The translations under genes and the position numbers were made by a program. From a virus (taxonomy: Duplodnaviria; Heunggongvirae; Uroviricota; Caudoviricetes), in the IMG/VR virus record IMGVR_UViG_3300015360_001243, positions 113,999 to 153,198 of that record: a stretch of DNA of 39,200 nucleotides; one strand, written 5' to 3'. Positions 10,273 to 37,539 of the stretch are shown piece by piece. The notes under the pieces are model-generated. The model saw only the letters and a program-made list of their open reading frames with translations, was not told the origin of the DNA and did no database searches. Positions within the stretch are counted from its first letter, which is position 1. Every line of letters begins with the position of its first letter.

Positions 10273-10653
10273 ATGAAAGATAATAGTTATAAGAAGCAAC
10301 CAAGGAGATATCCTTCAAAAAAGGCACCGAAGGGAGGTGAATCGCAGCCAGTCGTAGTCAACGACAAATTTGCACATATCGAACCTGTGCAGGCCCAACC
10401 CTTGGAAGTCAAAGTATACAATGGTAACTTTGATAAAGCTCTCAGAGCATTTAGGGCTCTAGTTCAAAAGGAACGTATTCTCTCTGTTTACAAAGAGAAT
10501 CAATCGTTCGAAAAACCCTCTGATAAACGCAGGAGAAAGCGTAACGAGATGAAGAGGAAACGTCATGAAATGAACAACCCTCGACCTGAGGGCCATTCTG
10601 GCGGTGGCAAGAAGAACTTCAAGCCACGCTCCAAGTCTCAGTCTCCAGAATGA
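10273..10653 (+). CDS. rpsU: Ribosomal protein bS21 with N- and C-terminal extensions
   Basis: VKVYNGNFDKALRAFRALVQKERILSVYKENQSFEKPSDKRRRK matches the bS21 pattern (VxV...ALRxF...EKPS.xRxRK). Confidence 0.85.
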   Translation: MKDNSYKKQPRRYPSKKAPKGGESQPVVVNDKFAHIEPVQAQPLEVKVYNGNFDKALRAFRALVQKERILSVYKENQSFEKPSDKRRRKRNEMKRKRHEMNNPRPEGHSGGGKKNFKPRSKSQSPE

Positions 10654-10659
10654 GTAACG

Positions 10660-11394
10660 ATGTCAACTGATAAAAAAGTTAAGGTTTACAAAAATCCGGC
10701 AAGGAATCGCCCGGAAGCCCATAAGCAATATGTGCCACAGTATCAACTTCTAGGTGTTGAACCTGAAGAATACAAAAGCCCGTTATCACCTGGCTACAAA
10801 CCAGTTGTGGCAACGCCATCCACTGATAATCCACGAACTCCTAGGGCCGTCATTAGACAGCCTTATGCTGAGTCCGTTCCATCTCCAATTGGTAGGGGTC
10901 GAGGACTTATACCTAATGTTGGAAACAATATGGAACAGACTTGGTCTGGAGTAGATGGTGAAGTCATTGTGGATGATATTAGCGTAGACCCTAACCAGAC
11001 TATGGTTGACAATAATGATTTCGTCAGTGCAGCCGCCCTTGGGCTGCCTGAAGAGACGGAAGAGGAGCTACCCTCTTTAGATGAGGTAGAAAATCCTCCT
11101 CGCAAGCAATTTGCGGTACCAGAAGAATCAAAATCATTTCTTACCAAAAATGAACTAGAAGATGCTCTTTCTCATGAATATCTTTCAACTGTTATTAAAC
11201 AGTTAGAGGAAGATGATTATCTATTACTAGTATCTGGGCAAGCAATTTGTTCAGGTCCAGAAGAATATGTTCAAGAGCAAACTAGACTTCTCATTTTCGG
11301 AGAACATGAATTGTATAATGGTAATCCCGTCTCAGTTGATGATATAGTAGTTATTAAGAGAGCCAAAATAAAGGTTGGCGTATTCTTAGAATAA
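10660..11394 (+). CDS. Hypothetical protein, Pro-rich and acidic
   Basis: 244-aa ORF in operon-like packing; no family recognised. Confidence 0.8.
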   Translation: MSTDKKVKVYKNPARNRPEAHKQYVPQYQLLGVEPEEYKSPLSPGYKPVVATPSTDNPRTPRAVIRQPYAESVPSPIGRGRGLIPNVGNNMEQTWSGVDGEVIVDDISVDPNQTMVDNNDFVSAAALGLPEETEEELPSLDEVENPPRKQFAVPEESKSFLTKNELEDALSHEYLSTVIKQLEEDDYLLLVSGQAICSGPEEYVQEQTRLLIFGEHELYNGNPVSVDDIVVIKRAKIKVGVFLE

Positions 11395-11403
11395 GGTACT
11401 ACT

Positions 11404-12216
11404 GTGACTACGGAACCACGCAAAGCTTCAGACATTTTACTTGAGCTAGAGAAAAAGCTAGATATTGCTTTGAATATCATTCGTACTCAGGATTTGAATA
11501 TTAAAATTCTTTCCAATAAGCTAAACGGCATTGTTGAGACTTTAGAAAAGAAATCGATTGAGACGCCGAAATTTACTGTAGAGGCTATTAATTCTATTCC
11601 TCAAGCTAGGATGTTGCCGCCTCAAGTTCAAGTTGGGGATGATCGAAATCTTCTAGTTTCTCCTGATGATAAATTACCGTTAGAAACTGAGCCAAGAGGA
11701 TTTAGAAGAACTTCTAGGCCAGAAACTTTTGCTGGCGATGATGCTTATCTTGCCAAACCTTCTGGAGCGGTTACTCCTAAGTATCCGGTACAGATGCCTG
11801 GTGCGCCTCCTGGAAGAAATCCTAACGCTCCTCCGCCTGGTAGAGAGGCCGAAGTTGTGGTCCCTGCTCAGCCAAAGCCTAAAGTAGCGGTGGCCCCAGC
11901 GCCAGAGCCAACGAAACAACAACAAGTATTACTTCAAAACGCCGTTCCAGTAATGCAAAGAGTGGTTAATGCTCATGGTAAATCTTTGTTTTTGGCTGAT
12001 GTAGAAATTATTGATTTAACTACTATGCAGCAGGTCGTTAAGACCAGGACTAATGGAACAGGTAAATGGATGGCTTCTTTAGGTATCGGTGATTATCGTG
12101 TTATCATCCGTAAGCTAGAGGCTGCTACTAAGGAAAGACTAGAAGTGACACAAGAAATCCATATCGATGGAAGTCAGTCACCTTTTGAGCTTCAGACCGT
12201 AATTATCAAATCATAA
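11404..12216 (+). CDS. Hypothetical protein: N-terminal coiled coil, Pro-rich linker, C-terminal beta-sandwich
   Basis: GTG start after TAAGG; C-terminal VVNAHGKSLFLADVEI...TRTNGTGKW...LGIGDYRV resembles carboxypeptidase-regulatory-like domains. Confidence 0.75.
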   Translation: MTTEPRKASDILLELEKKLDIALNIIRTQDLNIKILSNKLNGIVETLEKKSIETPKFTVEAINSIPQARMLPPQVQVGDDRNLLVSPDDKLPLETEPRGFRRTSRPETFAGDDAYLAKPSGAVTPKYPVQMPGAPPGRNPNAPPPGREAEVVVPAQPKPKVAVAPAPEPTKQQQVLLQNAVPVMQRVVNAHGKSLFLADVEIIDLTTMQQVVKTRTNGTGKWMASLGIGDYRVIIRKLEAATKERLEVTQEIHIDGSQSPFELQTVIIKS

Positions 12217-12239
12217 AGAATCTCGTAGATCGCCGATCT

Positions 12240-12247
12240 GATATATA
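12240..12247 (+). promoter_or_regulatory. GATATATA motif inside a GCCGAT/ATCGGC inverted repeat
   Basis: GCCGAT-CTGATATATA-ATCGGC-ATG (12232-12256); motif recurs in other intergenic gaps. Confidence 0.5.
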
Positions 12248-12253
12248 ATCGGC

Positions 12254-12937
12254 ATGCCACAAACATATAAAGTAATAGTTGCCGACCCGCCTTGGCCTTT
12301 CAAAGATACTCTCAAGATGTCTGACGTAGCTCGTGGAGCCGCAGCCAACTATGATTTGATGTCTATGAAAGATATTAAAGAACTTCCTATGAAGCAGTTT
12401 GCTGATTCAGATGGATGTGTATTGGCATTATGGGTTCCATCATCTCTACTTCAAGATGGTTTAGATACCATGAAGGCTTGGGGCTTTGATCATAAGCAAA
12501 CTTATATTTGGGTTAAAACTAGAAAACAAGAAAGTTTAAAAAAGATTTTCTTCAAGACAGCTTTAGAAATTATTCAAGATATGAATGCTAAAGTTCCTAA
12601 GAAAAAGATTCTAAATAACTTCTCAATGAATCTAAATGCTGCGTTGGCTTTTGGTATGGGACGATTATTTAGACAGACTCACGAAATAGCGTTAATTGGA
12701 ACAAGTAATAAAGGGATATATAAATCACTGAAGAACAAATCTCAACGTTCTGTTAGTTTGGCCCCGAATCTAAAACACTCTTCAAAACCAGATGACTTGC
12801 AAAAGTCTCTGGAAGAAATGTTTCCATCGGGTAAGAAACTAGAATTGTTTGCTCGCAGGCGCCTGGATGGTTGGACCTGTTTGGGTAATGAGATTTGCAA
12901 CGGGGAAGACATCAGGGATTCGCTCGCCAAATTATAA
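12254..12937 (+). CDS. MT-A70 family N6-adenine methyltransferase
   Basis: YKVIVADPPW catalytic motif, LALWV, WGF...YIWVK, GMGRLFRQTHE, HSSKP, KLELFARR...GWTCLGNE. Confidence 0.9.
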   Translation: MPQTYKVIVADPPWPFKDTLKMSDVARGAAANYDLMSMKDIKELPMKQFADSDGCVLALWVPSSLLQDGLDTMKAWGFDHKQTYIWVKTRKQESLKKIFFKTALEIIQDMNAKVPKKKILNNFSMNLNAALAFGMGRLFRQTHEIALIGTSNKGIYKSLKNKSQRSVSLAPNLKHSSKPDDLQKSLEEMFPSGKKLELFARRRLDGWTCLGNEICNGEDIRDSLAKL

Positions 12938-12953
12938 GAATTCCTACTGCGTC

Positions 12954-12981
12954 TTGACTTCCTAATTTTAAGGATTATTGT
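12954..12981 (+). promoter_or_regulatory. Candidate sigma70-type promoter giving a leaderless mRNA
   Basis: TTGACT-16 nt-TATTGT, then 6 nt to ATG 12988. Confidence 0.45.
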
Positions 12982-12987
12982 GTCATC

Positions 12988-13500
12988 ATGGCTAAGAAAA
13001 CGTTACTATTAAATGCTAGCTACGAAGTGCTTTCTTTCATTCCAGAGAGAAAAGTTTTCAAGCTCTTGTTCAAAGACAAGGTTGAGGTAATCTCAGCTTG
13101 GGACGATTACATCATCTGGGGCTCTGGAAAGTTGAAGCACCCCTCTATTTTGAGATTGAAGAATCATGTTCGTAGGAACTACTTCAACTCTAACTTCAGT
13201 CGTAAGGCTCTAGTTAAAAGAGATAGAAGCACTTGCCAATATTGTGCAAGAAAGCTTACAGCATCTCAAATTACCATTGACCACGTCCTTCCAAGGGCGC
13301 AAGGCGGTATTACGTCCTTCACTAACTGTGTTGCATGTTGCCAAATCTGTAACAACAAGAAGGCCGATAGGACGCCGGAACAAGCCAGCATGGTTCTTCT
13401 CAAGAGACCTACTCATCCATCATTTTCAGCACATGCTTACGTGGCAGATCCACAAGAGCATTGGCATAATGACTGGGATGACTTTTTAGGAAATTCATAA
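12988..13500 (+). CDS. HNH endonuclease (McrA-like)
   Basis: TLLLNASYE N-terminus, KRDRSTCQYC, TIDHVLPRAQGG, NCVACCQICNNKKADRTP. Confidence 0.92.
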   Translation: MAKKTLLLNASYEVLSFIPERKVFKLLFKDKVEVISAWDDYIIWGSGKLKHPSILRLKNHVRRNYFNSNFSRKALVKRDRSTCQYCARKLTASQITIDHVLPRAQGGITSFTNCVACCQICNNKKADRTPEQASMVLLKRPTHPSFSAHAYVADPQEHWHNDWDDFLGNS

Positions 13501-13556
13501 AAAGACGGTATCTCATTGAGATTACTCATGAAAAAGGTAATTAATGTATGGTTTAT

Positions 13557-13586
13557 AAGGGGATAAGGTGAAAGCTTTATCCCCTT
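13557..13586 (+). terminator. Strong hairpin after the HNH gene, probable terminator
   Basis: AAGGGGATAA-GGT-GAAA-GCT-TTATCCCCTT: 10 perfect pairs plus 3 pairs (two G-U) closing a GAAA tetraloop; weak T tail. Confidence 0.55.
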
Positions 13587-13626
13587 TAATCATTCAATAT
13601 TACAGAATACTAGAATAGTCTCTCTC

Positions 13627-13634
13627 GATATATA
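13627..13634 (+). promoter_or_regulatory. GATATATA motif
   Basis: CGATATATAGGACGGACC-ATG; 9 nt before ATG 13644. Confidence 0.5.
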
Positions 13635-13643
13635 GGACGGACC

Positions 13644-13889
13644 ATGACCAAGGTAAGCTGTAACTGCATAGTGTGTGCTCAAGAATTTGATTCAGATGAC
13701 CTACAGAGCGTAGCCTTGTCCGAAATCAACGTGACCAATTTTAAGGTCTGTCAGGCATGCTTTGATAGTTCAGATCCAGCCGAGGATTATCGTGAAGTAC
13801 GTTCCGTAGTCGAATGGTATTCTACAGCTACAACAGCCAAGTACTATTACAATGAAGTCAAGGACATTCTAAAGTCAAGAAAAGATTAA
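13644..13889 (+). CDS. Small Cys-motif hypothetical protein
   Basis: 81 aa, CNCIVC and CQAC pairs. Confidence 0.75.
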   Translation: MTKVSCNCIVCAQEFDSDDLQSVALSEINVTNFKVCQACFDSSDPAEDYREVRSVVEWYSTATTAKYYYNEVKDILKSRKD

Positions 13890-14051
13890 TCATAGTAGTT
13901 CTATGATAATTACTTTACCGCCTTCATCTTTTTCTTCTTCCTCTTCTTGCTGAGGCTTCTCTATTGGAGGGTACAACTCAATATGCAGGGGCAGCGGCTC
14001 ATTTTCTTTCTTGCGCTCTGGCGTATGAATGAAAGGGATAAAAGGATACAT
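13890..14051 (-). CDS. Small acidic hypothetical protein (53 aa)
   Basis: MYPFIPF...QQEEEEEKDEGGKVIIIELL; GGAGG Shine-Dalgarno just upstream of ATG 14051 on the minus strand; stop abuts the convergent gene. Confidence 0.65.
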   Translation of the reverse strand: MYPFIPFIHTPERKKENEPLPLHIELYPPIEKPQQEEEEEKDEGGKVIIIELL

Positions 14052-14088
14052 AGAAACCTCCGCTGTATTAATATGTTGGAATATACTC

Positions 14089-14289
14089 ATGTTATGTCCC
14101 AACTGTGCCAAACTAGCTGCGTTACAAACTAACAAGACTTGTAATCGTTGTCAATCTCCCGTTTTCACTAATATTTCTGTGTTATGCGAGAACTGTTCCA
14201 ATGGTTCTCAGCAATGTGCTGTGTGTCTAAAGAAGATAATTCCGTTGGGCGCAAATGCCAAAAGAGGCTGCAACTGCGGGCGTAAGTAA
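14089..14289 (+). CDS. Small Cys-rich zinc-binding hypothetical protein (66 aa)
   Basis: MLCPNC...CNRC...CENC...CAVC...CNC; ATG 14089 avoids overlap with the divergent gene. Confidence 0.75.
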   Translation: MLCPNCAKLAALQTNKTCNRCQSPVFTNISVLCENCSNGSQQCAVCLKKIIPLGANAKRGCNCGRK

Positions 14290-14305
14290 GTTATATAGGT
14301 AAGTA

Positions 14306-14836
14306 ATGATTATTGTTAACAATGAAGAAGCTCTCCGCGTTAAATGCGAAGATGTGAAGCCTGAAGAAGTGGCTGAACTGATTGCGACATTAGAAGCGGA
14401 ACTCAATAATGCTAACCGTTTAGGTCGTGGCGGGATTGGTTTGGCGGCCCCTCAAATTGGGATCGCTAAAAACATCGCTATCGTTCGACTAGGACCATCC
14501 GCTAATATCGATCTAGTTAACTGTAAATTAGATAAAGGTTTTGATCCAACTCTTTTTAAAGATGAAGGATGTTTATCATTCCCTGGACGAGTAGAAGATA
14601 CTACTCGTTTTCAGGAAGTACATATTATTAACAATCTCGTGTATCCACATTCTTTTGTTGCTACTGGATTAATAGCGGTTGTTTGTCAACATGAATTAGA
14701 TCATTTGAATGAAACTTTGATTATGGATCGTAAGGTCCCTAAGTTAGTTCCAATAGTTAATAAGAAAAAGGCTGGCCCAAACGATCCCTGCACTTGTGGG
14801 TCGGGTAAGAAATATAAAAAGTGCTGTAATAAGTGA
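14306..14836 (+). CDS. def: Peptide deformylase with C-terminal SEC-C motif
   Basis: [23 protein letters not shown] motifs; [18 protein letters not shown] tail. Confidence 0.93.
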
Positions 14837-14842
14837 GGACCA

Positions 14843-15076
14843 ATGACTAATAAACCCGATGTACTATCTAATGATTTACTTATTGCTGATGCTCTCCTAA
14901 GACTAAAGGCAATAGAAAATTTGCTTATTGCCAAAGGAATCTTTTCTAGAGATGAGTTTAATGCTGAGATGACCTCAATCACCAAAGTTATCGCAAAGGC
15001 TCTTCTAGAAAAAGCTAATGTTTCTGGAAATCTAGATGAATTAATTGAATCCCTAGGAAAGGGCTCAGATAATTAA
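14843..15076 (+). CDS. Hypothetical protein (77 aa)
   Basis: ORF with GAGG SD; coupled to next gene by TAATG. Confidence 0.75.
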   Translation: MTNKPDVLSNDLLIADALLRLKAIENLLIAKGIFSRDEFNAEMTSITKVIAKALLEKANVSGNLDELIESLGKGSDN

Positions 15077-15390
15077 TGCGGTTTCTTACTCAAGAAGAAG
15101 ATTTCAAATTAACGTCTAAAACGCAATCTTTATATTTTTACGCCTCCTGGATGCCCTTTCATAAGAAAATGCTCGTAATGATTGGTAAAATGGAAGAGAA
15201 GCATAAGGATATTGAGTTTATTGCTATTGATACGGACCATTTTAAAGGGTTATGTAAAAGATTTACTATTGATCAAATACCCTCTGTTTTGATTGTTAAA
15301 GATGGTATTGAAATAAAAAGAATAACTGGGCTGGTTTTAACTAGTGCATTTAGAAGCGCATTTGCTGATATATGTAGTTCTGAATCCTAA
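15076..15390 (+). CDS. Thioredoxin-fold protein lacking CxxC
   Basis: LYFYASWMPFH at the WCxxC position, FIAIDTD, IDQIPSVLIVKDG.EIKRITG. Confidence 0.8.
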   Translation: MRFLTQEEDFKLTSKTQSLYFYASWMPFHKKMLVMIGKMEEKHKDIEFIAIDTDHFKGLCKRFTIDQIPSVLIVKDGIEIKRITGLVLTSAFRSAFADICSSES

Positions 15391-15406
15391 AATATTGGAG
15401 TATTTC

Positions 15407-15751: not shown

Positions 15752-15757
15752 GGTCTT

Positions 15758-16273: not shown

Positions 16274-16276
16274 CTT
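16248..16276 (+). promoter_or_regulatory. Candidate sigma70 promoter embedded in the upstream gene end
   Basis: TTGACA-17 nt-TAACTT, then 5 nt to ATG 16282. Confidence 0.55.
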
Positions 16277-23214: not shown

Positions 23215-24462
23215 ATGCAAATTGAAGTTAAAGAAATTGAACCATGCAAGTTGTCGATTCATTATACGGCTTCCGCCCTAGAGATTATGAATAAGCGAGG
23301 AGAAATACTCACTCATTTCAAGAAGGCTCCGGTTCCAGGCTTCCGTCAAGGTAAGGCATCCTTAGATGCTATTAAGGTTCATTATCGCACTCAAATCGAA
23401 GAGTCTCTTAAGAGAGCTTTGGCAGAAGATGCGTATCACAATACCTTATTTGAAAAGAAGATTAAGCCCCACGGCGCCCCACGTTTCAATTCCCTGCTTA
23501 TGGCAGATGGCAAGTTTACGTGTGAATTCGATTTACACACTAAACCAGAGTTTGAGATGGCGTCTTATATTGACATAACACTTCCTAAGCCGCATGAGGA
23601 AGAAGATGAAGTCGCGGTCACTGAAAAAATGATGCAGGAACTTAGAGTTCGTTTTGGTGAAGTTACTCCTTTTTCTGAAACTGATTTCGTTGAGAATGGC
23701 GATAATGTCATTCTAGACTATGAGGGTTTCTTAGATGGTGAGAGGGTTGAAAATCTTTGCGCCACCGGAGAGATGCTTACCGTTGGTAATACCAATTTTA
23801 CGTATTTCGATCAGAACATTCTTGGAATGATTGTTGGCGAAACAAGAGAGTTTGATTTGCTTGTTCCAGAAGATAGTCTGCCTTCTTTAGCTGGTAAGAG
23901 CGTACACCTTGTTGTAACACTTCATACCGGATCTAAGACTGTTCCGTATCCTCTAGATGATACTTTGGCAATTCGTCTTGGAAAGAAAGATTTTTCTGAG
24001 TTAAAGGAATATGTTAAGGGTACTGCCGCTGCTACTCTTCAAAACAAAGCAAAGGGCCAGATTAACGAAGCCGTTGCTAATAAGTTAGTGGCTGAGACCG
24101 TTATTGCAGTTCCAAACTGGATGTCTCTATCTGAGGCTCAATATTTAGCACATAACGCTAAAATTGATTGGGCTACAATGGCTGACGTTGATAGAGAGAA
24201 ATATCTCAGCATGGCAGAGAAGAATGTCAAGCTAGCTTTGATTCTAGATAGAGTTAGAGAAGAACAGCCCGAAGCTCAGTTGACTGATCAAGAAGTGTTT
24301 GATGTTATCAAACAGAATCTTGCTAAAACTAATGTGAATAGACCAATGGACGAAGTCATGGAACAAATGAATAAGTCTGGATATTTGCAAATTTTGTTCT
24401 CTCGTATTCGAGATGAACATACCATGGATTACATTACTAAAAGTGTAAAATTTGTTGAATAA
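23215..24462 (+). CDS. tig: Trigger factor
   Basis: VPGFRQGKA ribosome-binding loop, FKBP-like GDNVILDYEG.LDGE...GM.VGETREF, C-terminal helical domain; 415 aa. Confidence 0.92.
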   Translation: MQIEVKEIEPCKLSIHYTASALEIMNKRGEILTHFKKAPVPGFRQGKASLDAIKVHYRTQIEESLKRALAEDAYHNTLFEKKIKPHGAPRFNSLLMADGKFTCEFDLHTKPEFEMASYIDITLPKPHEEEDEVAVTEKMMQELRVRFGEVTPFSETDFVENGDNVILDYEGFLDGERVENLCATGEMLTVGNTNFTYFDQNILGMIVGETREFDLLVPEDSLPSLAGKSVHLVVTLHTGSKTVPYPLDDTLAIRLGKKDFSELKEYVKGTAAATLQNKAKGQINEAVANKLVAETVIAVPNWMSLSEAQYLAHNAKIDWATMADVDREKYLSMAEKNVKLALILDRVREEQPEAQLTDQEVFDVIKQNLAKTNVNRPMDEVMEQMNKSGYLQILFSRIRDEHTMDYITKSVKFVE

Positions 24463-25075: not shown

Positions 25076-25741
25076 ATGGCTAGTAATAACGCAGGATCTA
25101 TTGGAAATATTAGAAAGAAATTCCATTATACCCATGAATTGATTTCTACAGCTTATCATGAGGCAGGCCATACAGTTTATGGGTTACTTCATCATATGAA
25201 TATTGACTCTGTTCTAGTATTCGAAGATAAGAAATCTAAAAGAATTCATGGGTTTACTCATTATGACCCTGCTGAATTATCCGAAATTCAGGACGCCAAT
25301 CTCTTTAATGACCGTCTGCATGCTGAAATCTGTTTATCTTACGCAGGGTTAGTGGCAGAGAAGCGTAGCTTCAAGTTACTTTCAGGGACCGATAAGTTCC
25401 CTATGTTCTTGAGAGAGGGCTCTTGTCATGACTTTTCAGAGGCCGCCGAACTCTTTCAAAAGTGGGCTTTATGTAAGCCCGGAAGAGAAAGATACAATTA
25501 CAAGCAAAAATTGATCAAACAAATTGATCAAGAATTAATTGATCACTGGGATGCGGTCTCCTTAGTGGCTCACGGCTTGTTTAAAAAGAAAAAAATTCTA
25601 TTCAGTGAACTTCAAGATTTGTTGACTAAAAAAAGTCAAAATAAACAATTTTGGAAAAATCAATTCAAGGCCATTAATTATATGTATAACAATAATGAGA
25701 CCCTTGACGAAAAAGAATTAAAATCTATATTGTCCATTTGA
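25076..25741 (+). CDS. Stand-alone peptidase M41-like (FtsH protease-domain-like) protein
   Basis: TAYHEAGHTV (HExxH), ICLSYAGLVAEK, GSCHDFSEA (third ligand Asp); no AAA or membrane segment. Confidence 0.8.
   Translation: MASNNAGSIGNIRKKFHYTHELISTAYHEAGHTVYGLLHHMNIDSVLVFEDKKSKRIHGFTHYDPAELSEIQDANLFNDRLHAEICLSYAGLVAEKRSFKLLSGTDKFPMFLREGSCHDFSEAAELFQKWALCKPGRERYNYKQKLIKQIDQELIDHWDAVSLVAHGLFKKKKILFSELQDLLTKKSQNKQFWKNQFKAINYMYNNNETLDEKELKSILSI
25704..25731 (+). promoter_or_regulatory. Candidate sigma70 promoter for dnaE, embedded in the upstream gene end
   Basis: TTGACG-16 nt-TATATT. Confidence 0.5.
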
Positions 25742-25866
25742 TCGAAAAGTAACCACACCGTATTCCCTGGCATTAGTACACTCAGCCTACCCTTAGGCTG
25801 GAAGCGCTCACGAACGAGTTAGATGTACACTGTATGTTACAGTACACAACCATAGGAAGTACTATG
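25742..25866 (+). other. Structured 5' leader of dnaE (candidate cis-regulatory RNA)
   Basis: Stems 25776-82/25821-28, 25783-89/25794-800, 25806-09/25816-19, 25829-34/25838-43 and 25851-55/25862-66 (last one buries the ATG). Folded by eye only. Confidence 0.4.
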
Positions 25867-28800
25867 TCTGACTTTGTCTCATTACATAATCAAACCGATT
25901 TTTCTATTCTCGATTCTCTTATCTCTCCAAAAGCTCTTTTCAATCGAGCCAAAGAGTTAGGACAAACGGCAGTCGCAGTTACCGACCACGGAACACTGGC
26001 TGCCACTTGGGACGCGCTCAAAGCTTCGCGCGACACTGGAGTGAAGCTCATCATCGGATGCGAATGTTATTTCGTAGAGGATGCCAGTAATATCAATGAG
26101 AAGTTTAGGCACATCATTCTTCTAGCTAAGAATGCGGTGGGATATCGAAATTTACTAACGCTCAACAAAAAGGGATTCGACCAAGGACATTTTCTTGGCA
26201 AGAGAGTTTATCCAGTTGTTGACTGGAAGTTACTTGCTCAGCATGCCGAAGGACTTATTTGCCTTACTGCTTGTGGCAATGGTATCATTAGTCAATTACT
26301 AATGAACAAGAAATTTGAAGAAGCAGGACAAACCCTTCTCAAACTCAAAGTATTGTTTGGTGAGAATCTTGGTTTAGAGATTCAGGCAAACAACATGAAG
26401 CGTGGCTCTAATATTTTTAACGATGAAATTGATCAGCAGTTTCTCAATCGTCGAATGATTGAGCTTGGTAAGGCGCATGGAGTTCGTGTTGTTCCAACTT
26501 GTAACGCTCATTATGTCAAAAAAGAAGATAGCGATACGCACGATACTTTGTTGGCGATCGGCTCTCATCAACCCAAGCATTCTAATTTCCGCCTCAAGTA
26601 TCCCGTTTCGGATTTCTACATGAAGACGGGCGAGGAAGTAGCGACCTTTTTTACTCGTAACTACGGTGAAAATGTCGCTAAAGAATTGTGTGCTAATACC
26701 ATTTTCTTCTCAGAAATGTGCGAACAGCCAGATTGGATTGATCCTAAGTTTTCGAATCCTTCAGGGAAAGAACTTCCAATTTTCCCGGTGAAAGATGAGC
26801 CCGACCTACCGGAGTTTTTCGCCTGGGTTGCTACTCAGCCTGACGATGTCAAAACTTTAGAAGATGATAAGTTATTCCTGCGTTTTCACTGTCAAAAGTA
26901 TTTCGAGTCTCGTATTAAGGATCTGACTGATGAGAAGCGAGTTGAGTATCAAGCTCGTCTGGCCGAAGAGTTAGACGTTATTGAGTTCCACGGATTTTCC
27001 AGTTATATGCTTATCGTTGCCGATTTTATTGATTGGGCACGTAAACATGATATTGCTGTTGGAGATGGTCGTGGTTCTGTTGGAGGGTCATTAATTGGAT
27101 TCCTTCTCGGCATCCATCAGGCTGATCCTATTAAGTACAATCTAATCTTTGCTCGTTTTCATAATAAGGAAAAGTCCAGCTTCCCAGATATTGATACTGA
27201 CTTTGCTCCTTCCGGTCGCGCGCGTGTGCAAGAGTACTTGCGTAAAAAGTATGGTGAGGACCACGTGGCTCACGTTTCTAACGTGAATACAATCACACCT
27301 AAAGTTTATGTTAGAGATATCTCTCGCGTATGCGAACTTGGTGGCTCTAAGGAAGATGCTGTTCGTATTGGTAATGATGTGGCCGATTGTATTCCTGCGG
27401 ATATTCACTCTATTGATGATGCTATTGCCAAGGTACCGCTGTTTGGTGAGTATTGTAAGAAGTACCCTCAGCTTCTTCAGTATCGAGACATCTGCGGCAA
27501 GTACCGTGCATGGTCAACCCATGCCGGAGGTATCATTATCTCTGCTCGTCCTTTGACCGGCCTCGTCCCTCTTAGGAAGGATAAGGATGGCGCACTAGCT
27601 ATTGAGTACGATAAGGACAAGGCCGAAGAGAATGGTTTGGTCAAGATGGATACTCTTGGTCTTACGACTTTAGATATTATTGGTGAGACTTATAAGATCA
27701 TTAAAGCTCGTGGTAAAGAATTGCCACCAGAAATTATGGACTATGATGTCTATGATAAAGAGTCCTATGATCTTATCACTAGCGGCGACACGTTCTGTGT
27801 TTTCCAGTTAGGAACCAGCGCCGGAACCATTGACTTGTGCCGCAGAATCAAGCCAATGAATATCAATGACCTTGCTAACATCAACGCTCTTGCCCGCCCT
27901 TCGGCTCGTGACATGCGTAATGATTTTATCAAAACTAGAAATGGTGAGAGAAAATTCTCGCTTCTTCATCCTAAGTTAGGTCGTGCTTTCAATAGCACTT
28001 ACGGCTTCGGTCTTTATGAAGAGTGTTTGATGTATCTGGCTCAGGACGTAGCAGGATGGTCTCTTCACTCTGCCGACCGTTTGCGTAAGCTAACGAAGGA
28101 AAAGGGCAAGAATCCAAAGAAGGCTCAAGCCTGGAGAACAGAATTCATTACGGATGCTACTAAGCAAGGCGTTAATGAAGAGATTGCTAAGCGTATTTGG
28201 GATGAAGTTGTAGACAAGTTCCAAGGTTACGGCTTCAACGTCTCTCACGCTGTTCTTTATTCTATGACTGGTTTCAAGACCGCTTATCTCAAAGGACATT
28301 ACCCTATTGAGTTCTTGTTAGCTAACTTAATGGATAAGGTTAAATCTAATGCTCCAGACGCTGTCAACGAAATTAACAAGATTAAGAAAGAGTTAAGGAA
28401 GCATAAAGTCAAGATTGTACCACCGGATATCAATCACTCTGAATTGACCTATACTATTTCTGATGGTAACAAACTGATGACGGGACTTGATGCTCTCAAG
28501 TTTGTCGGTGACGATGCTATTAAAGAGATTATCGAGAAGCGCCCCTTCAATAGTTTTTTTGATTTCATGGCCAGAATAGATTCCAAGAAGGTAAGAGCTA
28601 ATAGTATTCAGGCTCTTGCGGCTGCTGGAGCTATGGATTCTTTCAAGCTTCCACGTAAACTTATCTTCTTGTATGTTTCTGATTATCGTAAGAAGCTCCA
28701 AGTTTGGATGAAGAAGCATGATCCTTCTAAGGAAGAATTTATATACCCGTGGCCGGCTGAGACGGATTGGACTATTCCTGAGCTTTATGCCCTGGAACAG

Positions 28801-29394
28801 TTTTACTTGGGCGAATCCTTTATCTGCAAGCCTGCCGAGGCTTATGGTAAGTTCTTCAAGGATAGCCATGTAACAATTTATGAAGTTCGTAAGGAGGCCG
28901 ACAAGACCAAAGTTCGCCCAGTCAAGGCTATTGTTCGAGACTATTTCGAGTTCAAGGTCAAGAAAGAGACTAGCAAGTACTATGGCCAATCCATGGTCAA
29001 GGCCGTAATTGAAGATAAAAACGGCGACCAGTGCTCTTGTACTATCTTCCCAGACCGCTGGAAGATGGTTCAGGACCGTATCAAGGAAGTCAATAGTAAA
29101 GCTGAATTTGACTCTGGGATTGGTTTAAGCTTCTCTGGAAGTACCAATAACTATGAAGATGATATTGGTATTATTTTGGATGATGTTTATACCGTTGCCA
29201 CTATCCCAGCCCTACCTGCTGACTTGAAGGCCAAGAAAGTCAATCTAAAGGAAGCTAAAGCCAAGGGAAAACTAGGCGTTTCGTCTGCTGCGGACTATGT
29301 TAATAATGCTGGCCAGACCCTAGAAGAGCGCCTAGAAGACATGCTCTACGATGAAGGGCTCATTGATTTAGATGAAGACCCTGACGATGATTGA
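25864..29394 (+). CDS. dnaE: DNA polymerase III alpha subunit (DnaE type)
   Basis: PHP domain (TDHG, GCE, LLAKN), GRGSVGGSL, FPDIDTDF catalytic motif, STHAGG, KMDTLGL, FQGYGFNVSHA, OB-fold; AGGAAG SD before ATG 25864. Confidence 0.97.
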   Translation: MSDFVSLHNQTDFSILDSLISPKALFNRAKELGQTAVAVTDHGTLAATWDALKASRDTGVKLIIGCECYFVEDASNINEKFRHIILLAKNAVGYRNLLTLNKKGFDQGHFLGKRVYPVVDWKLLAQHAEGLICLTACGNGIISQLLMNKKFEEAGQTLLKLKVLFGENLGLEIQANNMKRGSNIFNDEIDQQFLNRRMIELGKAHGVRVVPTCNAHYVKKEDSDTHDTLLAIGSHQPKHSNFRLKYPVSDFYMKTGEEVATFFTRNYGENVAKELCANTIFFSEMCEQPDWIDPKFSNPSGKELPIFPVKDEPDLPEFFAWVATQPDDVKTLEDDKLFLRFHCQKYFESRIKDLTDEKRVEYQARLAEELDVIEFHGFSSYMLIVADFIDWARKHDIAVGDGRGSVGGSLIGFLLGIHQADPIKYNLIFARFHNKEKSSFPDIDTDFAPSGRARVQEYLRKKYGEDHVAHVSNVNTITPKVYVRDISRVCELGGSKEDAVRIGNDVADCIPADIHSIDDAIAKVPLFGEYCKKYPQLLQYRDICGKYRAWSTHAGGIIISARPLTGLVPLRKDKDGALAIEYDKDKAEENGLVKMDTLGLTTLDIIGETYKIIKARGKELPPEIMDYDVYDKESYDLITSGDTFCVFQLGTSAGTIDLCRRIKPMNINDLANINALARPSARDMRNDFIKTRNGERKFSLLHPKLGRAFNSTYGFGLYEECLMYLAQDVAGWSLHSADRLRKLTKEKGKNPKKAQAWRTEFITDATKQGVNEEIAKRIWDEVVDKFQGYGFNVSHAVLYSMTGFKTAYLKGHYPIEFLLANLMDKVKSNAPDAVNEINKIKKELRKHKVKIVPPDINHSELTYTISDGNKLMTGLDALKFVGDDAIKEIIEKRPFNSFFDFMARIDSKKVRANSIQALAAAGAMDSFKLPRKLIFLYVSDYRKKLQVWMKKHDPSKEEFIYPWPAETDWTIPELYALEQFYLGESFICKPAEAYGKFFKDSHVTIYEVRKEADKTKVRPVKAIVRDYFEFKVKKETSKYYGQSMVKAVIEDKNGDQCSCTIFPDRWKMVQDRIKEVNSKAEFDSGIGLSFSGSTNNYEDDIGIILDDVYTVATIPALPADLKAKKVNLKEAKAKGKLGVSSAADYVNNAGQTLEERLEDMLYDEGLIDLDEDPDDD

Positions 29395-29417: not shown

Positions 29418-29444
29418 AAAACCGGGCTTTTAACCCGGTTTTTT
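29418..29444. terminator. Rho-independent terminator after dnaE (possibly bidirectional)
   Basis: AAAACCGGG-CTTTTAA-CCCGGTTTT-TT. Confidence 0.8.
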
Positions 29445-32396: not shown

Positions 32397-32411
32397 AAAG
32401 GACGGTAAGTT

Positions 32412-32714: not shown

Positions 32715-32769
32715 TACTATTTGTCGAGAAAAAGTTCAACTGATTACATATTATAGTAAGGAAGACGAT

Positions 32770-33282
32770 ATGAGCCAGCAAGTAAGACTTGGTGATTTGT
32801 TAGGGACAGAGTTAGAGGAAGATTTTGCTAATTTCGACCTGACTGAAATCCAGGATGTGTTGGAAAGACTTCAGGAAACTGATGCCATTGACTTGGCTCA
32901 CGCTGAGTTATTGCAACAACAAGCATTAAGGGGAGCAGACGTAATTGTAGGTCATCTGGGGAAGATTGTGAAAACAGTTGGTTACCTAGAAGCTAAAGTA
33001 GCAAGCACAAAAAATAAAGTGTCTTTGGATTATCAAGCGCCAGATGGGGCAAGAACAACCTTAGACATGAAAAAATGGGCAGGAGAAAGTTCGCCCGAAG
33101 TAGAAGAAGTGCAAATTAAACTAGCAAAGGCCAAGGGAAGCAAACTCGTACTTGAACGTAAATATGAACTTTTGGTGAAATCTCACCATCATTTTAAAGA
33201 TATTGCGGCGGGCCTCAGACGAACGATCCTCGGATATAGTTCTGGCACGACAAACGAGAAAGTTCCCGATGGCTACGAATGA
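32770..33282 (+). CDS. Helical hypothetical protein, possible UvsY-like recombination mediator
   Basis: 170 aa, coiled-coil pattern, immediately upstream of recA. UvsY resemblance is by size, position and pattern only. Confidence 0.45.
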   Translation: MSQQVRLGDLLGTELEEDFANFDLTEIQDVLERLQETDAIDLAHAELLQQQALRGADVIVGHLGKIVKTVGYLEAKVASTKNKVSLDYQAPDGARTTLDMKKWAGESSPEVEEVQIKLAKAKGSKLVLERKYELLVKSHHHFKDIAAGLRRTILGYSSGTTNEKVPDGYE

Positions 33283-33293
33283 TAGGAGATAGA

Positions 33294-34460
33294 ATGTCGA
33301 ATAAATTAGACGCATTTTTCAAAAGTTATGCGGAGTCAGCAGAACAACTTGATTACAAAATGGCCCATGAAACTGTAGGTAAGAAGTTACCTGCAACCTC
33401 AACGGGCTCTCTAGCGTTAGATAACGCTCTGTCAGCGGGCGGCTTACCAAAGGGTAGACTCTTTCAATATTATGGTCCAACTGGATCCGGTAAAACGTTG
33501 ATGGCAATGTTGGCTATGAAAGAAGCTCAGGCCGACGATCCCACCGCTCAACAAATGTTTATTGACGCAGAAGGAACTTTCGATCCTAACTGGGCAGAAT
33601 CTCTAGGATTAGATACTTCTCGTATCATCTTGGTTGAACAAGAGACTGCCGTTATTGGTCGTAAATGTTTTGAATTGATTCTTGGTGTTCCTAAGGAAGA
33701 CAAGAAGACGCACGAATTAGTCGGCAAAGCTAAAGATGGATTGCTAGACCTTATCATGGCTGGCGAATTGAACATCAATATGGTGGTTCTAGATTCCTTG
33801 GGAGCCATCATGCCCCCTGGAGAAGATATCTCTAGAGTCGGTAAAATGAATATGTCTTTGCTTGCAAGGTTTTTGACTACGACATTCCGTAAGCTATCTT
33901 TAGATGCTAATAAGGCTCAAGTTCCTTTCATCTTTATTAATCACAAGAAAGATGGAATGGATCCTTATGGATCAGATCACACATTCTCTGGTGGTAATAG
34001 TTACGCTCATTTCTTGTCAGCTAACATCTATTTTGAATCAGTCAATAGGGCTGATGCCAAGGTGTTGGATGAGAATGAAGATAGAATTGGCGCCACCATT
34101 CGTGCCACTATTGAGAAATCTAAGTTCGGTCCGTGGCCGCGCAAGTGCGAATTCAGAGTAAACTTTGGAATCGGCGTTATAGACAAGCATCTTGAGATCG
34201 CTCAACTGGCACTAGATTACAATGTAGTCACTAAGCCAACAACCGTATCTCATGAATTTGGAGATCGTAAGTGGGTTGGTTTCGGTAAGTTCTGCGATGC
34301 AATCAAAGATGAACCAGCGCTATATGATGAATTAGCTCTCAAGATTATCGAAGCTCGCGATGCGAAACTTGCAGATAAGTTGAAGGAGCAAGAGCTTAAA
34401 ACTGCCGCTCGTGAAGCCGAAGTTAAAGAGGGCAAGAAGAAAGTAAAGAAAGGCGAATAA
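33294..34460 (+). CDS. recA: RecA-family recombinase
   Basis: GGLPKGR, YGPTGSGKT Walker A, FIDAEGTFD, VVLDSLGA Walker B, IFINH, GG, KSKFGP; AGGAG SD favours ATG 33294 over 33279. Confidence 0.93.
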   Translation: MSNKLDAFFKSYAESAEQLDYKMAHETVGKKLPATSTGSLALDNALSAGGLPKGRLFQYYGPTGSGKTLMAMLAMKEAQADDPTAQQMFIDAEGTFDPNWAESLGLDTSRIILVEQETAVIGRKCFELILGVPKEDKKTHELVGKAKDGLLDLIMAGELNINMVVLDSLGAIMPPGEDISRVGKMNMSLLARFLTTTFRKLSLDANKAQVPFIFINHKKDGMDPYGSDHTFSGGNSYAHFLSANIYFESVNRADAKVLDENEDRIGATIRATIEKSKFGPWPRKCEFRVNFGIGVIDKHLEIAQLALDYNVVTKPTTVSHEFGDRKWVGFGKFCDAIKDEPALYDELALKIIEARDAKLADKLKEQELKTAAREAEVKEGKKKVKKGE

Positions 34461-34461
34461 A

Positions 34462-34803
34462 ATGACTGAGAAAGATTTCGCAGTTAGTTCAGTAGGGATT
34501 CCATCAGTAGCTACGGTTTCAAAGAAACCTTGTTATTTGATTACCCTAGTGGACCCTGCTGGAAAAGGAACAATAGTAAGTCGTTTTATTACGCTTGACA
34601 AGCCTGACTTGCTAAGTGGATTTGTCCAAGTTAAAGGAACCTTTGTTGAAGGCGGCGATGAAGTTTTGGTAAAAACTTTTACTGAAGTTTTAGCTGCAAC
34701 CCCTAAAGAATCCTTTATAGATATTATGCTTCCTTGGCATCGTATACACAGCATAAGAAGCCTTGTTTTTAATGCAAATAAACCCGCAACAGTAATCAGA
34801 TAA
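34462..34803 (+). CDS. Hypothetical protein (113 aa)
   Basis: ORF in operon-like packing. Confidence 0.75.
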   Translation: MTEKDFAVSSVGIPSVATVSKKPCYLITLVDPAGKGTIVSRFITLDKPDLLSGFVQVKGTFVEGGDEVLVKTFTEVLAATPKESFIDIMLPWHRIHSIRSLVFNANKPATVIR

Positions 34804-34812
34804 AGTAAGAAA

Positions 34813-35139
34813 GTGAGCAATAAAATGGCATCTAATAGTAAGACAAATAATCGCAGAATTTCTGCAATCGACAGTGTCGACGACATTGTTTTTCGTGGAG
34901 TTTCTTCGGTTGTTGAAAAACAATCTAAGGACATGTGGATTGGGACCATGACTGAGTTGGCAAGAGCTTTGAACAGAGTTTCAAGCAAGAGACAACGCAC
35001 GATTCTACCAGGAAGTCCAGGCGCTCTTAGAGTGGTAATTAATAGAGTAGTGAATAGACTACGTAACAGTGGTATCGGAGTAAGATTTGTTCGTACTACT
35101 GATCATGGAAGAACTCGTTTAGTTAGATTTACACAATAA
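34813..35139 (+). CDS. Basic hypothetical protein, possible nucleic-acid binding
   Basis: Arg-rich 108-aa ORF; GTG 34813 or ATG 34825 start. Confidence 0.7.
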   Translation: MSNKMASNSKTNNRRISAIDSVDDIVFRGVSSVVEKQSKDMWIGTMTELARALNRVSSKRQRTILPGSPGALRVVINRVVNRLRNSGIGVRFVRTTDHGRTRLVRFTQ

Positions 35140-35217
35140 TGTGTAGTAGAATAAAAACAGTAGATTGTTAATAGAAAAGTACCTTAGTGTACAGAAGATA
35201 AATAACAGGAGATTAAG

Positions 35218-35967
35218 ATGACTACATTTGGTGAAGTATCATATGCTGATGACGTATACGGTGGCGACAGTAACAAGAAGACCACTAACAACAAGGATTT
35301 ATTCCTTCGTTTGAATGAAGGATCTAACGAAGTTAGATTAGTAACCGCGCCCCACCAGTACTTGGTGCACAAGGTTAAGAAAGACCCAAACAATCCAAAG
35401 GATTTCGGGCAAAAGGTAAAGTGCTCTCAGCTTCACGGCTCATGCCCACTTTGCGAAGCTGTAGAAGCTAAGGTAGCTGGTGAAGAAAAAGCTAAGCCAC
35501 GCTGGTTCTACGGAGTAATTGATCGTAAGACTGGAACTTACAAAATTCTAGACATTTCTTACCAAGTCTTTTCTCAAATCAGAAAGCTTGCAAGAAACAC
35601 TCAGCGTTGGGGAGATCCAACCAAGTATGACATCGATATTGTCGTAGACAAGAACGGTGGCGCTGCTGGTTACTACTCTGTTCAACCAATTTCCAAGGAG
35701 CCGCTATCCGCTGCTGACCAGGACATTAAGGACAAGGCCGATCTTGATGACCTCAAGAGACGCTGCACTCCATTGACCGCAGAACAAGTTACGAACATTG
35801 TCAATAAGATCAGAGGAATTGCAACCACGGCAACCGCTGCTGCTACTGGCACTGCTCCAGCAACCAAGACTGCTGCTAAGGCACCTGTTGCCAAGACCCC
35901 AGCCGTCAGCATGACTGATGACGAGGAATTGCCAGAGACCTTTCCAGAGTACGCAGATAACGCCTAA
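35218..35967 (+). CDS. Phage single-stranded DNA-binding protein, gp32-like
   Basis: FLRLNEGSNEVRLV, H...C.QLHGSCPLC zinc ligands, RWFYGVIDR, GDPTKYDIDI, Ala/Thr linker and acidic tail; AGGAG SD. Confidence 0.78.
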   Translation: MTTFGEVSYADDVYGGDSNKKTTNNKDLFLRLNEGSNEVRLVTAPHQYLVHKVKKDPNNPKDFGQKVKCSQLHGSCPLCEAVEAKVAGEEKAKPRWFYGVIDRKTGTYKILDISYQVFSQIRKLARNTQRWGDPTKYDIDIVVDKNGGAAGYYSVQPISKEPLSAADQDIKDKADLDDLKRRCTPLTAEQVTNIVNKIRGIATTATAAATGTAPATKTAAKAPVAKTPAVSMTDDEELPETFPEYADNA

Positions 35968-36046
35968 GGCTTAATTGTGTTGTTATCAAATGGGGTTCAA
36001 GGTAAAACTTGAGCCCTATTCTATTTTTAACGTTATATTATCTAAC

Positions 36047-36601
36047 ATGACTAAAAGAGTGTTAGGGTTTGACGTGTCGAGTACCACCATTGGGTATTCT
36101 GTTCTTGATTATGATGGGACAGATTGTAAATTGTTTGATTCGGGATACCTTAAGCCACTTAAAACTGGTACTATAATTGAACGCATTGTAGATACTCGCA
36201 ATAAGATTCAATATATTATTGGCAAGTATCAGCCTAATGATATTGGAATTGAAGAGATCATTCAATTCATGCAAGGAAAGAGCACCGCTAAAACTATTAT
36301 TATGTTAACCACATTCAATAGAATGATTTGTTTATGTGCTCACGATTATCTTGGAAAGTCTCCTCAGTTATTTAGTGTTATGACTATTCGTCATGGTTTG
36401 AAGTTTGGCAAGGAACTTCCAAAAAAAGAAGATATGCCGGAGCTTGTTTCCAAACATTTAGGAATTACATTCCCCTACGAGACCAATAAAAAGGGAAAAC
36501 TAAAGGTTGAAAATTACGACAGAGCAGATGGAATCGCGGTCGGCCTTTATTATACTCTTTTGTTGATGGGTAAGATTACACGTAAGGGCAAGAAAAAATG
36601 A
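36047..36601 (+). CDS. ruvC: RuvC-like Holliday junction resolvase
   Basis: VLGFDVSSTTIGYSV, IGIEE, YDRADGIAVG acidic catalytic motifs; ATG 36047. Confidence 0.82.
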   Translation: MTKRVLGFDVSSTTIGYSVLDYDGTDCKLFDSGYLKPLKTGTIIERIVDTRNKIQYIIGKYQPNDIGIEEIIQFMQGKSTAKTIIMLTTFNRMICLCAHDYLGKSPQLFSVMTIRHGLKFGKELPKKEDMPELVSKHLGITFPYETNKKGKLKVENYDRADGIAVGLYYTLLLMGKITRKGKKK

Positions 36602-37539
36602 ATCTCAAGGAAGCTTATTCAATCTTAGAAATACCTCAAGGCACGCCTCCGGAGGATGCCAAGAAGAAGTATCGAGAACTTACTAAAAAGTACCACCCTG
36701 ATATCAACAAGGATGCTGGGGCTGAAGATAAGTTCAAAAAGATTAATGAAGCTTACCAAGTTGTCTCTAGTGGAAAGAGTAATGATCGTGCCGAACAACC
36801 TCAATGGCAACAAAACCAAAACCCTTATAATCCTTTTGGTCGCCAGGCGAAGCAAGTTAGTCATATTGAAGCAAGAACTACTGTTTCTTTCAAAGACTCA
36901 GTTCTTGGCTGCAAAAAAGAATTGAAGTTCAATCGTAAGACTAAGTGTAAAGATTGCAATGGAGAAGGCGAGATAGCTAAAAATAACGGATGTGAAAAGT
37001 GCGGTGGTAAAGGACAGGTAGTTACCCGTCAAGGATTTTCCGTTATGATTGAGACTTGTTCTAAATGTTATGGTAGAACTCAAGCAGATGCTTGTAACAC
37101 TTGTAATTCAGAAGGTACATTAGAGGCTGAGGTCACAATTACTGTTTCTATTCCGGGCGGGATTCAAAATGGAAACATTTTACGTCTTGGTGGTATGGGT
37201 AATTTCGCTGGCCACTTTGGACCGATAGAGCAACATAGCGATGTCTATTTGCATTTAAATGTAACACCGGAAAAAGATTTAGAGTTACAAGGAAATGATG
37301 TTGTAACCAAACTATCTATTTCTTTGTTGGAAGCTTTAAAGGGTTGTCATAAACCAGTAAAAACTATCTTAGGGACCAGAGATATACAGATTAAATCTAA
37401 ATCAAAGAATAAAGAAGAAGTCATTATTTCACATTTAGGAGTTAACCGACAAGGTAATCAAAGAGTTATTCTGGATATAGAGTATCCTGAGAACGTTGAT
37501 AATCTAATTAATATTCTATCTGAGGAAGGAAAAGCTTAA
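36598..37539 (+). CDS. dnaJ: DnaJ chaperone (class A architecture)
   Basis: J-domain with YHPD, AEDKFKKINEAYQVV; CKDCNGEG, CEKCGGKG, CSKC, CNTCNSEG repeats; IPGG...GDVY-like C-terminal domain. Confidence 0.93.
   Translation: MNLKEAYSILEIPQGTPPEDAKKKYRELTKKYHPDINKDAGAEDKFKKINEAYQVVSSGKSNDRAEQPQWQQNQNPYNPFGRQAKQVSHIEARTTVSFKDSVLGCKKELKFNRKTKCKDCNGEGEIAKNNGCEKCGGKGQVVTRQGFSVMIETCSKCYGRTQADACNTCNSEGTLEAEVTITVSIPGGIQNGNILRLGGMGNFAGHFGPIEQHSDVYLHLNVTPEKDLELQGNDVVTKLSISLLEALKGCHKPVKTILGTRDIQIKSKSKNKEEVIISHLGVNRQGNQRVILDIEYPENVDNLINILSEEGKA

Follow-up and report, generated by a model that had tools for sequence, protein, structure and literature searches.

Does a phage that encodes the ribosomal protein bS21, a peptide deformylase (PDF), a trigger factor (TF), a DnaJ-like co-chaperone, and ClpP carry these genes as a set acting on new proteins, and would such a set replace or supplement the factors of its host? 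The question is raised by the terminal 39,200 bases (the whole stretch that was analyzed, hereafter the window) of one 153,198-bp virus record, IMGVR_UViG_3300015360_001243, from an uncultured phage. The original prediction was that the phage replaces the exit-tunnel and quality-control factors of its host while using host DnaK and unfoldases, and the combination of genes was taken to be unusual. In the present analysis, comparison with related phage sequences points to a lineage that has long carried a vertically inherited, single-copy core set acting on new proteins, and we consider it rather probable that this set supplements host factors during infection.

The record is 35% complete (CheckV), and its relatives, which were gathered by protein-guided scans of IMG/VR, include contigs of up to 481 kb; eight of them are at least 90% complete and measure 361–481 kb, with genome sizes of ~430–480 kb in the complete ones. 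The term huge phage rests on these relatives, since the record itself is a 153-kb fragment, and through them the element falls under the definition of a huge (jumbo) phage as a viral genome that exceeds 200 kb, has virion genes, and lacks a cellular core. Distribution counts given below refer, unless another set is named, to 17 related IMG/VR records that were searched in full. Each of the 17 contained the families Trigger_N, Pep_deformylase, Ribosomal_S21, DnaJ, and CLP_protease, and the genes followed the order ClpP, bS21, PDF, TF, DnaJ in every one of them, with spacing near that of the window. The five families are thus colinear within the lineage and do not show unrelated, patchy distributions. 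The combination that had been called unusual is the rule here, and it is already auto-annotated in published huge-phage genomes.

All of the genes listed in the original prediction were recovered as real ORFs at the positions given there. Among these genes, that of the TF was characterized most fully. It lies at 23215–24462, on the + strand like the other genes of the set, starts 9 nt past a PD-(D/E)XK nuclease gene, and encodes a full-length, three-domain protein of 415 aa. The protein matched Trigger_N (5e-19) and Trigger_C (1.2e-10) in Pfam and scored above the NCBIfam tig equivalog cut-off (TIGR00115; 193.8 vs 180.2 bits). The Pfam match to FKBP_C was weak (20.4, under the cut-off of 21.1), and the modelled middle domain matched FKBPs and 1l1p. 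An AlphaFold2 (AF2) model based on an alignment of 124 relatives reached a pLDDT of 95.2 and a pTM of 0.84, and its best Foldseek matches were the full-length E. coli TF structures 1w26 and 2vrh, the latter being the ribosome-bound form (E 1e-22, ~430 columns). The N-domain had a TM score of 0.81 to 1oms, and the helices of the C-terminal arm extended across aa 260–410 in the model. The ribosome-binding loop reads GFRQGKAS, in which the final Pro of the GFRxGxxP signature is replaced by Ser; among the 124 relatives, G42, R44, G46, and K47 are near-invariant, and the Phe varies in a few. The equivalog score, the fold, and the loop sequence bear out the predicted full three-domain trigger factor with a GFRxGK loop.

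The TF family contains 649 clusters at 90% identity, the best 120 of which are all 415–427 aa in length, and 156 clusters below 1e-30 at 50% identity. The top 150 clusters score at least 131 bits to the window TF, and solved bacterial TFs score only 63–72 bits. In relatives that are 31% and 25% identical, the TF gene is still flanked by a CHB_HEX-domain gene plus the PD-(D/E)XK nuclease and, at its other end, by DnaE, with RecA or DnaJ downstream. A scan of 185,579 species genomes with the TF gave a sole match, partial and 29% identical, on a contig of a Planctomycetota metagenome-assembled genome. A tblastn search of GenBank phages gave 22 matches, all at no more than 32% identity and none of them a relative, mostly on short unannotated 'Bacteriophage sp.' contigs or host-like DNA records. 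Homologues are often labelled 'trigger factor' by JGI, and the PHROGs entry for the family reads 'unknown function'. Compared with bacterial TFs (E. coli Tig, 1w26, 2vrh), the phage protein shares the three-domain architecture, the fold, and the GFRxGK loop; it is nevertheless only 22–23% identical to them and falls into a subfamily of its own, with at least 150 clusters, and its gene lies between a nuclease gene and DnaE, whereas the bacterial gene lies beside clpP-clpX. The occurrence of the gene in all 17 relatives, its unchanged neighbors at 25–31% identity, and its distance from cellular TFs indicate that a deep lineage of huge phages has long inherited it vertically as part of the core genome, and that it is not a recent acquisition.

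The PDF gene (14306–14836) encodes a protein of 176 aa that matched Pep_deformylase (9.1e-25; 87.5 bits vs a Pfam cut-off of 22.8) and SEC-C (1.9e-07). The three catalytic motifs, which are of the GxGxAAxQ, EGCLS, and HExxH types, are intact, the last reading QHELDH, and the deformylase called earlier is upheld by them; the score was under the NCBIfam equivalog cut-off (82.3 vs 103.95). The original prediction had not mentioned the C-terminal SEC-C motif at aa 159–174 (CxCxSGxKxKxCC), a SecA-type zinc knuckle. Alignments to solved PDFs stop at aa 145–151, beyond which the protein consists of a basic Pro-rich linker and the knuckle, and the C-terminal alpha-helix that follows the catalytic core in type 1B PDFs is not present. 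In cellular PDFs, the chain terminates in a helix, and that of the E. coli enzyme docks on the ribosome. Both ribosomes and SecB are bound by the metal-binding domain of SecA, YecA uses a domain of this type to bind ribosomes, and many bacterial methionine aminopeptidases (MetAPs) bear one (10.1101/613315; 10.1101/2020.07.21.215244). Since the metal-binding domain of SecA and YecA bind ribosomes by the same knuckle and MetAPs carry one, the knuckle in place of the C-terminal helix would, by analogy, most simply be an alternative ribosome anchor.

The tail was found on 68 of 80 related viral PDF loci, in a search that was biased toward it. The solved phage PDFs, from Vibrio phage Vp16 (5mtc) and cyanophage S-SSM7 (3uwa), share the catalytic core and the three motifs with type 1B PDFs and with the window protein; in contrast to the latter, with its linker and knuckle, they are short chains of 137 and 154 aa. 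The same small knuckle is known from YecA/AscA, YchJ, and bacterial MetAPs (Cranford-Smith et al.), the MetAP being, like PDF, an enzyme of nascent chains, and our literature search found no description of a SecA-type knuckle on a deformylase. A type I MetAP is also encoded by this lineage. It was found in all eight relatives that are at least 90% complete and in 11 of 17 overall, being missing only from fragments, and unlike the knuckle-bearing bacterial MetAPs it has no such tail. Its gene lies ~130–155 kb from that of the PDF; because the record ends ~25 kb past the PDF gene, the lack of a MetAP in the record is uninformative. The lineage therefore carries all three classical exit-site factors, namely PDF, MetAP, and TF.

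Two proteolytic components were found in addition. The ClpP paralogues lie in tandem at 600–1184 (ClpP1; 194 aa, TTG start; CLP_protease 9.6e-46) and 1194–1778 (ClpP2; 194 aa; 2.5e-51), as they do in 15 of the 17 relatives. The catalytic triad of ClpP1 is gone (Ser to Asn, His to Ser, Asp to Gln), and ClpP2 keeps Ser, His, and Asp, so that the ClpP pair named earlier is made up, judged by the triad, of one dead and one live copy. Both copies match true ClpP far better than the ClpP-like head protease. A role of ClpP2 as prohead protease was put aside on its NCBIfam scores (174 vs 61.6 bits), its DksA-like neighbor, and its location in the replication part of the genome. That neighbor, at 244–597, is a DksA/TraR-type C4 zinc-finger protein of 117 aa with a CxxC...CxxC pattern (Pfam zf-dskA_traR 1.1e-10; NCBIfam DksA_like 4.9e-17, under the cut-off), in agreement with the earlier call of a DksA.

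The weakest of the earlier claims, an M41-like peptidase, was strengthened. The gene at 25076–25741, which belongs to the TF gene string, encodes 221 aa with an HEAGH motif, and H28, E29, H32, and E95 are invariant in 49 homologues. Despite a Pfam score under the cut-off (26.3 vs 29.9 bits), the AF2 model (pLDDT 91.9) has an FtsH-type fold, the top Foldseek matches being all protease domains of FtsH, AFG3L2, or YME1. The AAA+ module that is fused to this domain in FtsH and the membrane anchor are both absent, and the protein is a stand-alone FtsH-type protease domain. It was present in 15 of 17 relatives, ~1.9 kb past the TF gene, and an AAA+ gene lies ~15 kb upstream of it in the window.

This AAA+ gene (8917–10248) encodes a YjoB-like ATPase of the classic clade with 443 aa (Pfam AAA 7.4e-18), which confirms the AAA ATPase noted earlier. 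Its best match in the PDB is B. subtilis YjoB (7w42, 7e-36), and its Walker A motif reads GQPGNGKT. In all 17 relatives, it is located directly upstream of the bS21 gene; the gap in the window is 24 nt. The bS21 homologue (10273–10653; 126 aa) scored above the cut-offs of both Pfam (Ribosomal_S21 2.9e-14; 52.9 vs 27 bits) and TIGR00030 (52.9 vs 28.95 bits), again as predicted. Its S21 domain, at aa 45–97, is preceded by a 44-aa N-terminal extension and followed by a basic C-terminal extension, and the bS21 open reading frames (ORFs) of the 17 relatives are 97–140 aa long. An initiation factor, IF-3, is encoded in the record outside the window; counted over the record and four complete relatives, it occurs in three of five. 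When the 20 nt upstream of the start codons were inspected, many genes had no clear Shine-Dalgarno sequence, and a weak TAAGG was seen 8–12 nt upstream of ~10 genes. The weakness of these signals may be relevant to the phage bringing its own bS21 and IF-3.

The DnaJ-like co-chaperone is encoded at 36598–37539 (313 aa; Pfam DnaJ 1.6e-16, DnaJ_C 1.4e-25, DnaJ_CXXCXGXG 1.4e-07). It had been described as a class A DnaJ with intact HPD, which held in part. The J domain does contain HPD, DnaJ_C is present, and the zinc finger has four CxxC pairs with all eight Cys, the canonical CxxCxGxG being found in only two of the repeats. By contrast, the short linker (~aa 57–88) has a high content of Q, N, and P, contains two Gly and a single Phe, and is not a Gly/Phe-rich (G/F) region, and the score is far under the TIGR02349 cut-off (195 vs 377 bits). 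A second co-chaperone, GroES (Cpn10, 97 aa), is encoded before the window at record positions 27884–28153 (G000:C1) and was present in the record and three of four complete relatives.

In the record and the four complete relatives, no HSP70 (DnaK), GrpE, Cpn60 (GroEL), SmpB, or SecB was found. No ClpX-type unfoldase was found either, the matches being weak and generic AAA ones; a 369-aa ORF of the record with a weak AAA_2 match was considered as ClpX and rejected as a generic AAA/AAA_5 protein. Therefore, DnaK/GrpE, GroEL, ClpX/ClpA, and SmpB must come from the host, which agrees with the predicted dependence on host DnaK and unfoldases. The parts that the phage does encode (TF, PDF, MetAP, DnaJ, GroES, and ClpP) are, by family membership, ATP-independent components that would dock on the ribosome or recruit partners. 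The record also holds 31 tRNA genes and a transfer-messenger RNA (tmRNA), all outside the window. The tmRNA, at record positions 99179–99530 (G000:C1), encodes the tag ANDNAFAPLALAA, which ends in LALAA; as SmpB is absent from the record and the four complete relatives, this tmRNA would need host SmpB.

In the explanation that we favor, the window would belong to the genome arm for replication and host takeover in an uncultured huge phage of a microbial mat; DNA of the record does occur in microbial-mat metagenomes (eight microbial-mat DNA runs). At initiation, bS21 would act, in some members together with IF-3. At the ribosomal exit, the PDF, tethered by its SecA-type metal-binding knuckle, would work with MetAP and the full TF, which from family knowledge is expected to dock there through its GFRxGK loop. 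The co-chaperones DnaJ and GroES would follow, DnaJ probably stimulating host DnaK through HPD as other members of its family do. The live ClpP copy, which may share a mixed ring with the dead one, would be powered by a host unfoldase, and it could clear products tagged by the phage tmRNA through the LALAA end. The same set would include the classic AAA+ ATPase and the soluble protease domain of FtsH type. Such a supply of its own may keep N-terminal processing, co-translational folding, and the clearance of failures from becoming limiting when several hundred phage proteins have to be made on host ribosomes while host gene expression falls. As to whether host factors are replaced, nothing separates replacement from supplementation, and supplementation with phage-tuned versions is favored over the replacement that had been proposed.

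Several observations weigh against this explanation. The uniform presence of the genes within one clade is also what vertical inheritance alone predicts, and functional coupling is thus not shown by co-occurrence. The set is spread over ~37 kb and divided among at least five gene strings, interleaved with topoisomerase, SbcCD, DnaE, RecA, RuvC, and primase, and nothing ties these strings into one regulated unit. They run DksA, ClpP1, and ClpP2; topoisomerase, AAA, and bS21; a small ORF, PDF, a small ORF, and thioredoxin; nuclease, TF, two small ORFs, and M41; and RuvC, DnaJ, a small ORF, and primase, with overlapping stops and starts in the last. PDF, DnaJ, and ClpP score under the NCBIfam equivalog cut-offs, IF-3 is patchy, and the combination of a DnaJ without a G/F region and overlapping replication genes suggests another role for this protein.

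The best-surviving alternative builds on this arrangement and is, in our judgment, possible but unlikely. It holds that there is no kit and that the genes were acquired independently, each with a separate job within a large, vertically inherited core genome. DnaJ would recruit host DnaK to remodel the phage replisome, comparable to phage lambda, which needs DnaJ/DnaK to release DnaB; TF would act after translation, as a chaperone in the assembly of large phage complexes; host or defense proteins would be degraded by ClpP and the M41 domain; and PDF and bS21 would act alone at the ribosome. The start of DnaJ overlaps the stop of the RuvC-like gene, the next ORF overlaps DnaJ as well, and the primase follows; TF lies between a Cas4-like nuclease and DnaE even at 25–31% identity. 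Because the strings are separate and tight, a role of DnaJ in replication, as in lambda, and one of TF in assembly are conceivable. TF is indeed known to bind folded proteins and to aid assembly (title of PDB 3gty), and a survey of jumbo phages suggested that ClpP may be a peptidase directed against the host and that DnaJ assists assembly (PMC7824862). Neighborhood in an early or middle region of a phage is, however, weak functional evidence. Moreover, the knuckle-bearing PDF, MetAP, and the TF with its conserved GFRxGK loop converge on the ribosomal exit, and all three are core genes in the complete relatives, which argues for the explanation by a shared set.

We hold it to be improbable that the phage versions selectively displace the host factors, so that, with bS21 and IF-3, ribosomes favor phage messages and nascent chains. 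This idea is in line with the N- and C-terminal extensions of bS21 in all relatives, with a putative ribosome anchor on PDF that differs from that of cellular PDFs, with the weak or missing Shine-Dalgarno sequences at many phage genes, and with the proposal that phage bS21 selects phage transcripts (PMC9723584). Against it, there is no sign of displacement, IF-3 is not universal in the clade, and TF, PDF, and MetAP serve nearly all nascent chains in cells, with no known message selectivity. Similarly doubtful is a more extended picture, in which the phage would re-equip both ends of the ribosome, with bS21 (perhaps loaded by the AAA+ ATPase) and IF-3 at the decoding side and the knuckle-tethered PDF, MetAP, and the divergent TF at the exit, yielding a phage-specialized ribosome with a preference for making and maturing phage proteins, and in which the M41 domain and the AAA+ ATPase would combine into a split, soluble protease of FtsH type that serves quality control.

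The record could also have been cellular, a condition that the original prediction had itself raised. Neither 16S rRNA nor uL2 was found in the record or in the eight near-complete relatives. In the relatives, a terminase-like (TerL-like) gene encoding 633 aa lies ~13.5 kb past DnaJ, which is just beyond the end of the record, and there is a sheath-like gene of ~930 aa; both matches are weak and both placements consistent. The lack of 16S rRNA and uL2, together with the terminase-like and sheath-like genes of the relatives, identifies the element as a phage and not a cell. One relative from bay mud, BM_PHAGE_CIR_35_55, has been published as a circularized phage genome of 437,772 bp (PMC7162821). 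That the record is cellular or a megaplasmid miscalled as viral, with ordinary housekeeping genes, is very improbable and already largely refuted: although IMG/VR labels several relatives 'provirus', conjugative megaplasmids can carry a TF (PMC12934698), and the terminase and sheath matches are weak, the absence of 16S rRNA and uL2, the near-uniform strand, the 31 tRNAs and tmRNA, the circularized relative, the placement of the TerL-like gene, and a TF with no close relative in 185,579 species genomes beyond one partial 29% match all speak against it. The relatives labelled 'provirus' (G001, G003–G006, and G008; 97–100% complete, 361–481 kb) are without 16S rRNA or uL2, and the label may have been triggered by their many cell-like genes.

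Parts of this set have been reported before. In huge phages, bS21 with N-terminal extensions, PDF, IF-3, and tmRNA were discussed by Al-Shayeb et al. (2020, Nature 578:425, PMC7162821), and a 'Trigger factor' coding sequence (CDS) is present in at least 12 genomes of their supplementary GenBank files. One of these genomes, BM_PHAGE_CIR_35_55, has a TF CDS whose N terminus matches that of the window TF, with DnaJ ~12 kb and PDF ~9 kb away in the same relative order, and judging from these matches it looks like a member of the same lineage. The main text of that study differs from the present account in being silent on trigger factor, chaperones, and Clp, and no conserved syntenic set, SEC-C tail on PDF, or MetAP was noted there. 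ClpP and DnaJ are known from jumbo phages (PMC7824862). Phages that encode bS21, in the Bacteroidetes, were also found to carry chaperones and a Clp protease, which was read as proteostasis control (Chen et al. 2022, ISME Commun, PMC9723584). The likeness to our lineage lies in this combination; the differences are that the bS21 gene of those phages is late and placed among structural genes, whereas that of the window stands beside the AAA+ gene in a replication-type region, and that a deformylase is not mentioned. In our literature search, no paper discussing a phage trigger factor was found, and the only case on a mobile element was a megaplasmid (PMC12934698). The set is therefore already present as sequence in published genomes; its noteworthy specifics are the deep core status of the TF gene, the knuckle on PDF, MetAP, and the strategy of encoding co-chaperones only.

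Phage translation genes are known, and the exit-site factors, except PDF, have been little studied in phages. A widespread lineage of giant phages that keeps TF, a putatively tethered PDF, MetAP (in complete genomes), and co-chaperones, and that has no ATP-driven chaperone engines, suggests, in testable form, how protein maturation may be secured by a virus that has hundreds of genes and yet depends on its host. It also provides natural variants for the study of docking at the ribosomal exit, namely a TF sharing only 22% identity with that of E. coli and a PDF with a SecA knuckle.

The remaining content of the window is consistent with its assignment to a replication and recombination arm. The window contains ~50 real ORFs, all but one on the + strand. 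In a Pfam scan, these included a type IA topoisomerase, SbcD, SbcC, a dNMP kinase, and the PD-(D/E)XK nuclease, as well as DnaE, RecA, RuvC, a primase, an MT-A70 methylase, and an HNH endonuclease, and the genes acting on new proteins are interleaved with them. A peripheral member of the set is a thioredoxin-fold protein of 104 aa at 15076–15390 (Pfam Thioredoxin 3.1e-09), which belongs to the tight gene string of the PDF. The DnaE of the window (25834–29394, 1186 aa) gave no intein, LAGLIDADG, or Hint match, whereas the DnaE proteins of more distant relatives (L183:11888–16735 and the contig of P0269) are ~1,600 aa long and have intein and LAGLIDADG or Hint matches. Two long ORFs, at 1786–3447 (553 aa) and 4883–6229 (448 aa), lie beside the ClpP pair and an FtsK-like gene. 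Neither had a match in Pfam or PHROGs, and the 553-aa ORF had none in NCBIfam.

With regard to transcription signals, a scan for sigma-70-like promoters gave counts at chance level (58 vs 50.9 ± 7.2 and 56 vs 47.5 ± 6.1). Two strong terminator-like sites, each a hairpin with a T run, were seen. One, at 29418–29442, lies just past DnaE, has 11 pairs with T runs on both sides, and was called on the − strand; the other, at 1801–1820, lies just past ClpP2 and falls within the 553-aa ORF predicted from a TTG codon, so that translation of this ORF may in truth begin further downstream. For the octamer GATATATA, the record has 14 copies on the + strand and one on the − strand, with ~6.6 per strand expected from shuffles. 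Its copies in the window, at 12240, 13627, 22371, 29393, and 39176, and at 12715 inside a gene, are mostly intergenic, and one stands just ahead of the string of nuclease, TF, and M41. The octamer may be a phage promoter element.

Translation with table 11 gave 89% coding, and an alternative genetic code was rejected on this basis. TAG was the rarest stop, ending 11 of 186 long + strand ORFs of the record. A tRNA with the anticodon CTA, which would read TAG, was located by ARAGORN at record positions 104550–104624 (G000:C1), ~9.4 kb before the window, and may be a suppressor tRNA in a phage that uses the standard code.

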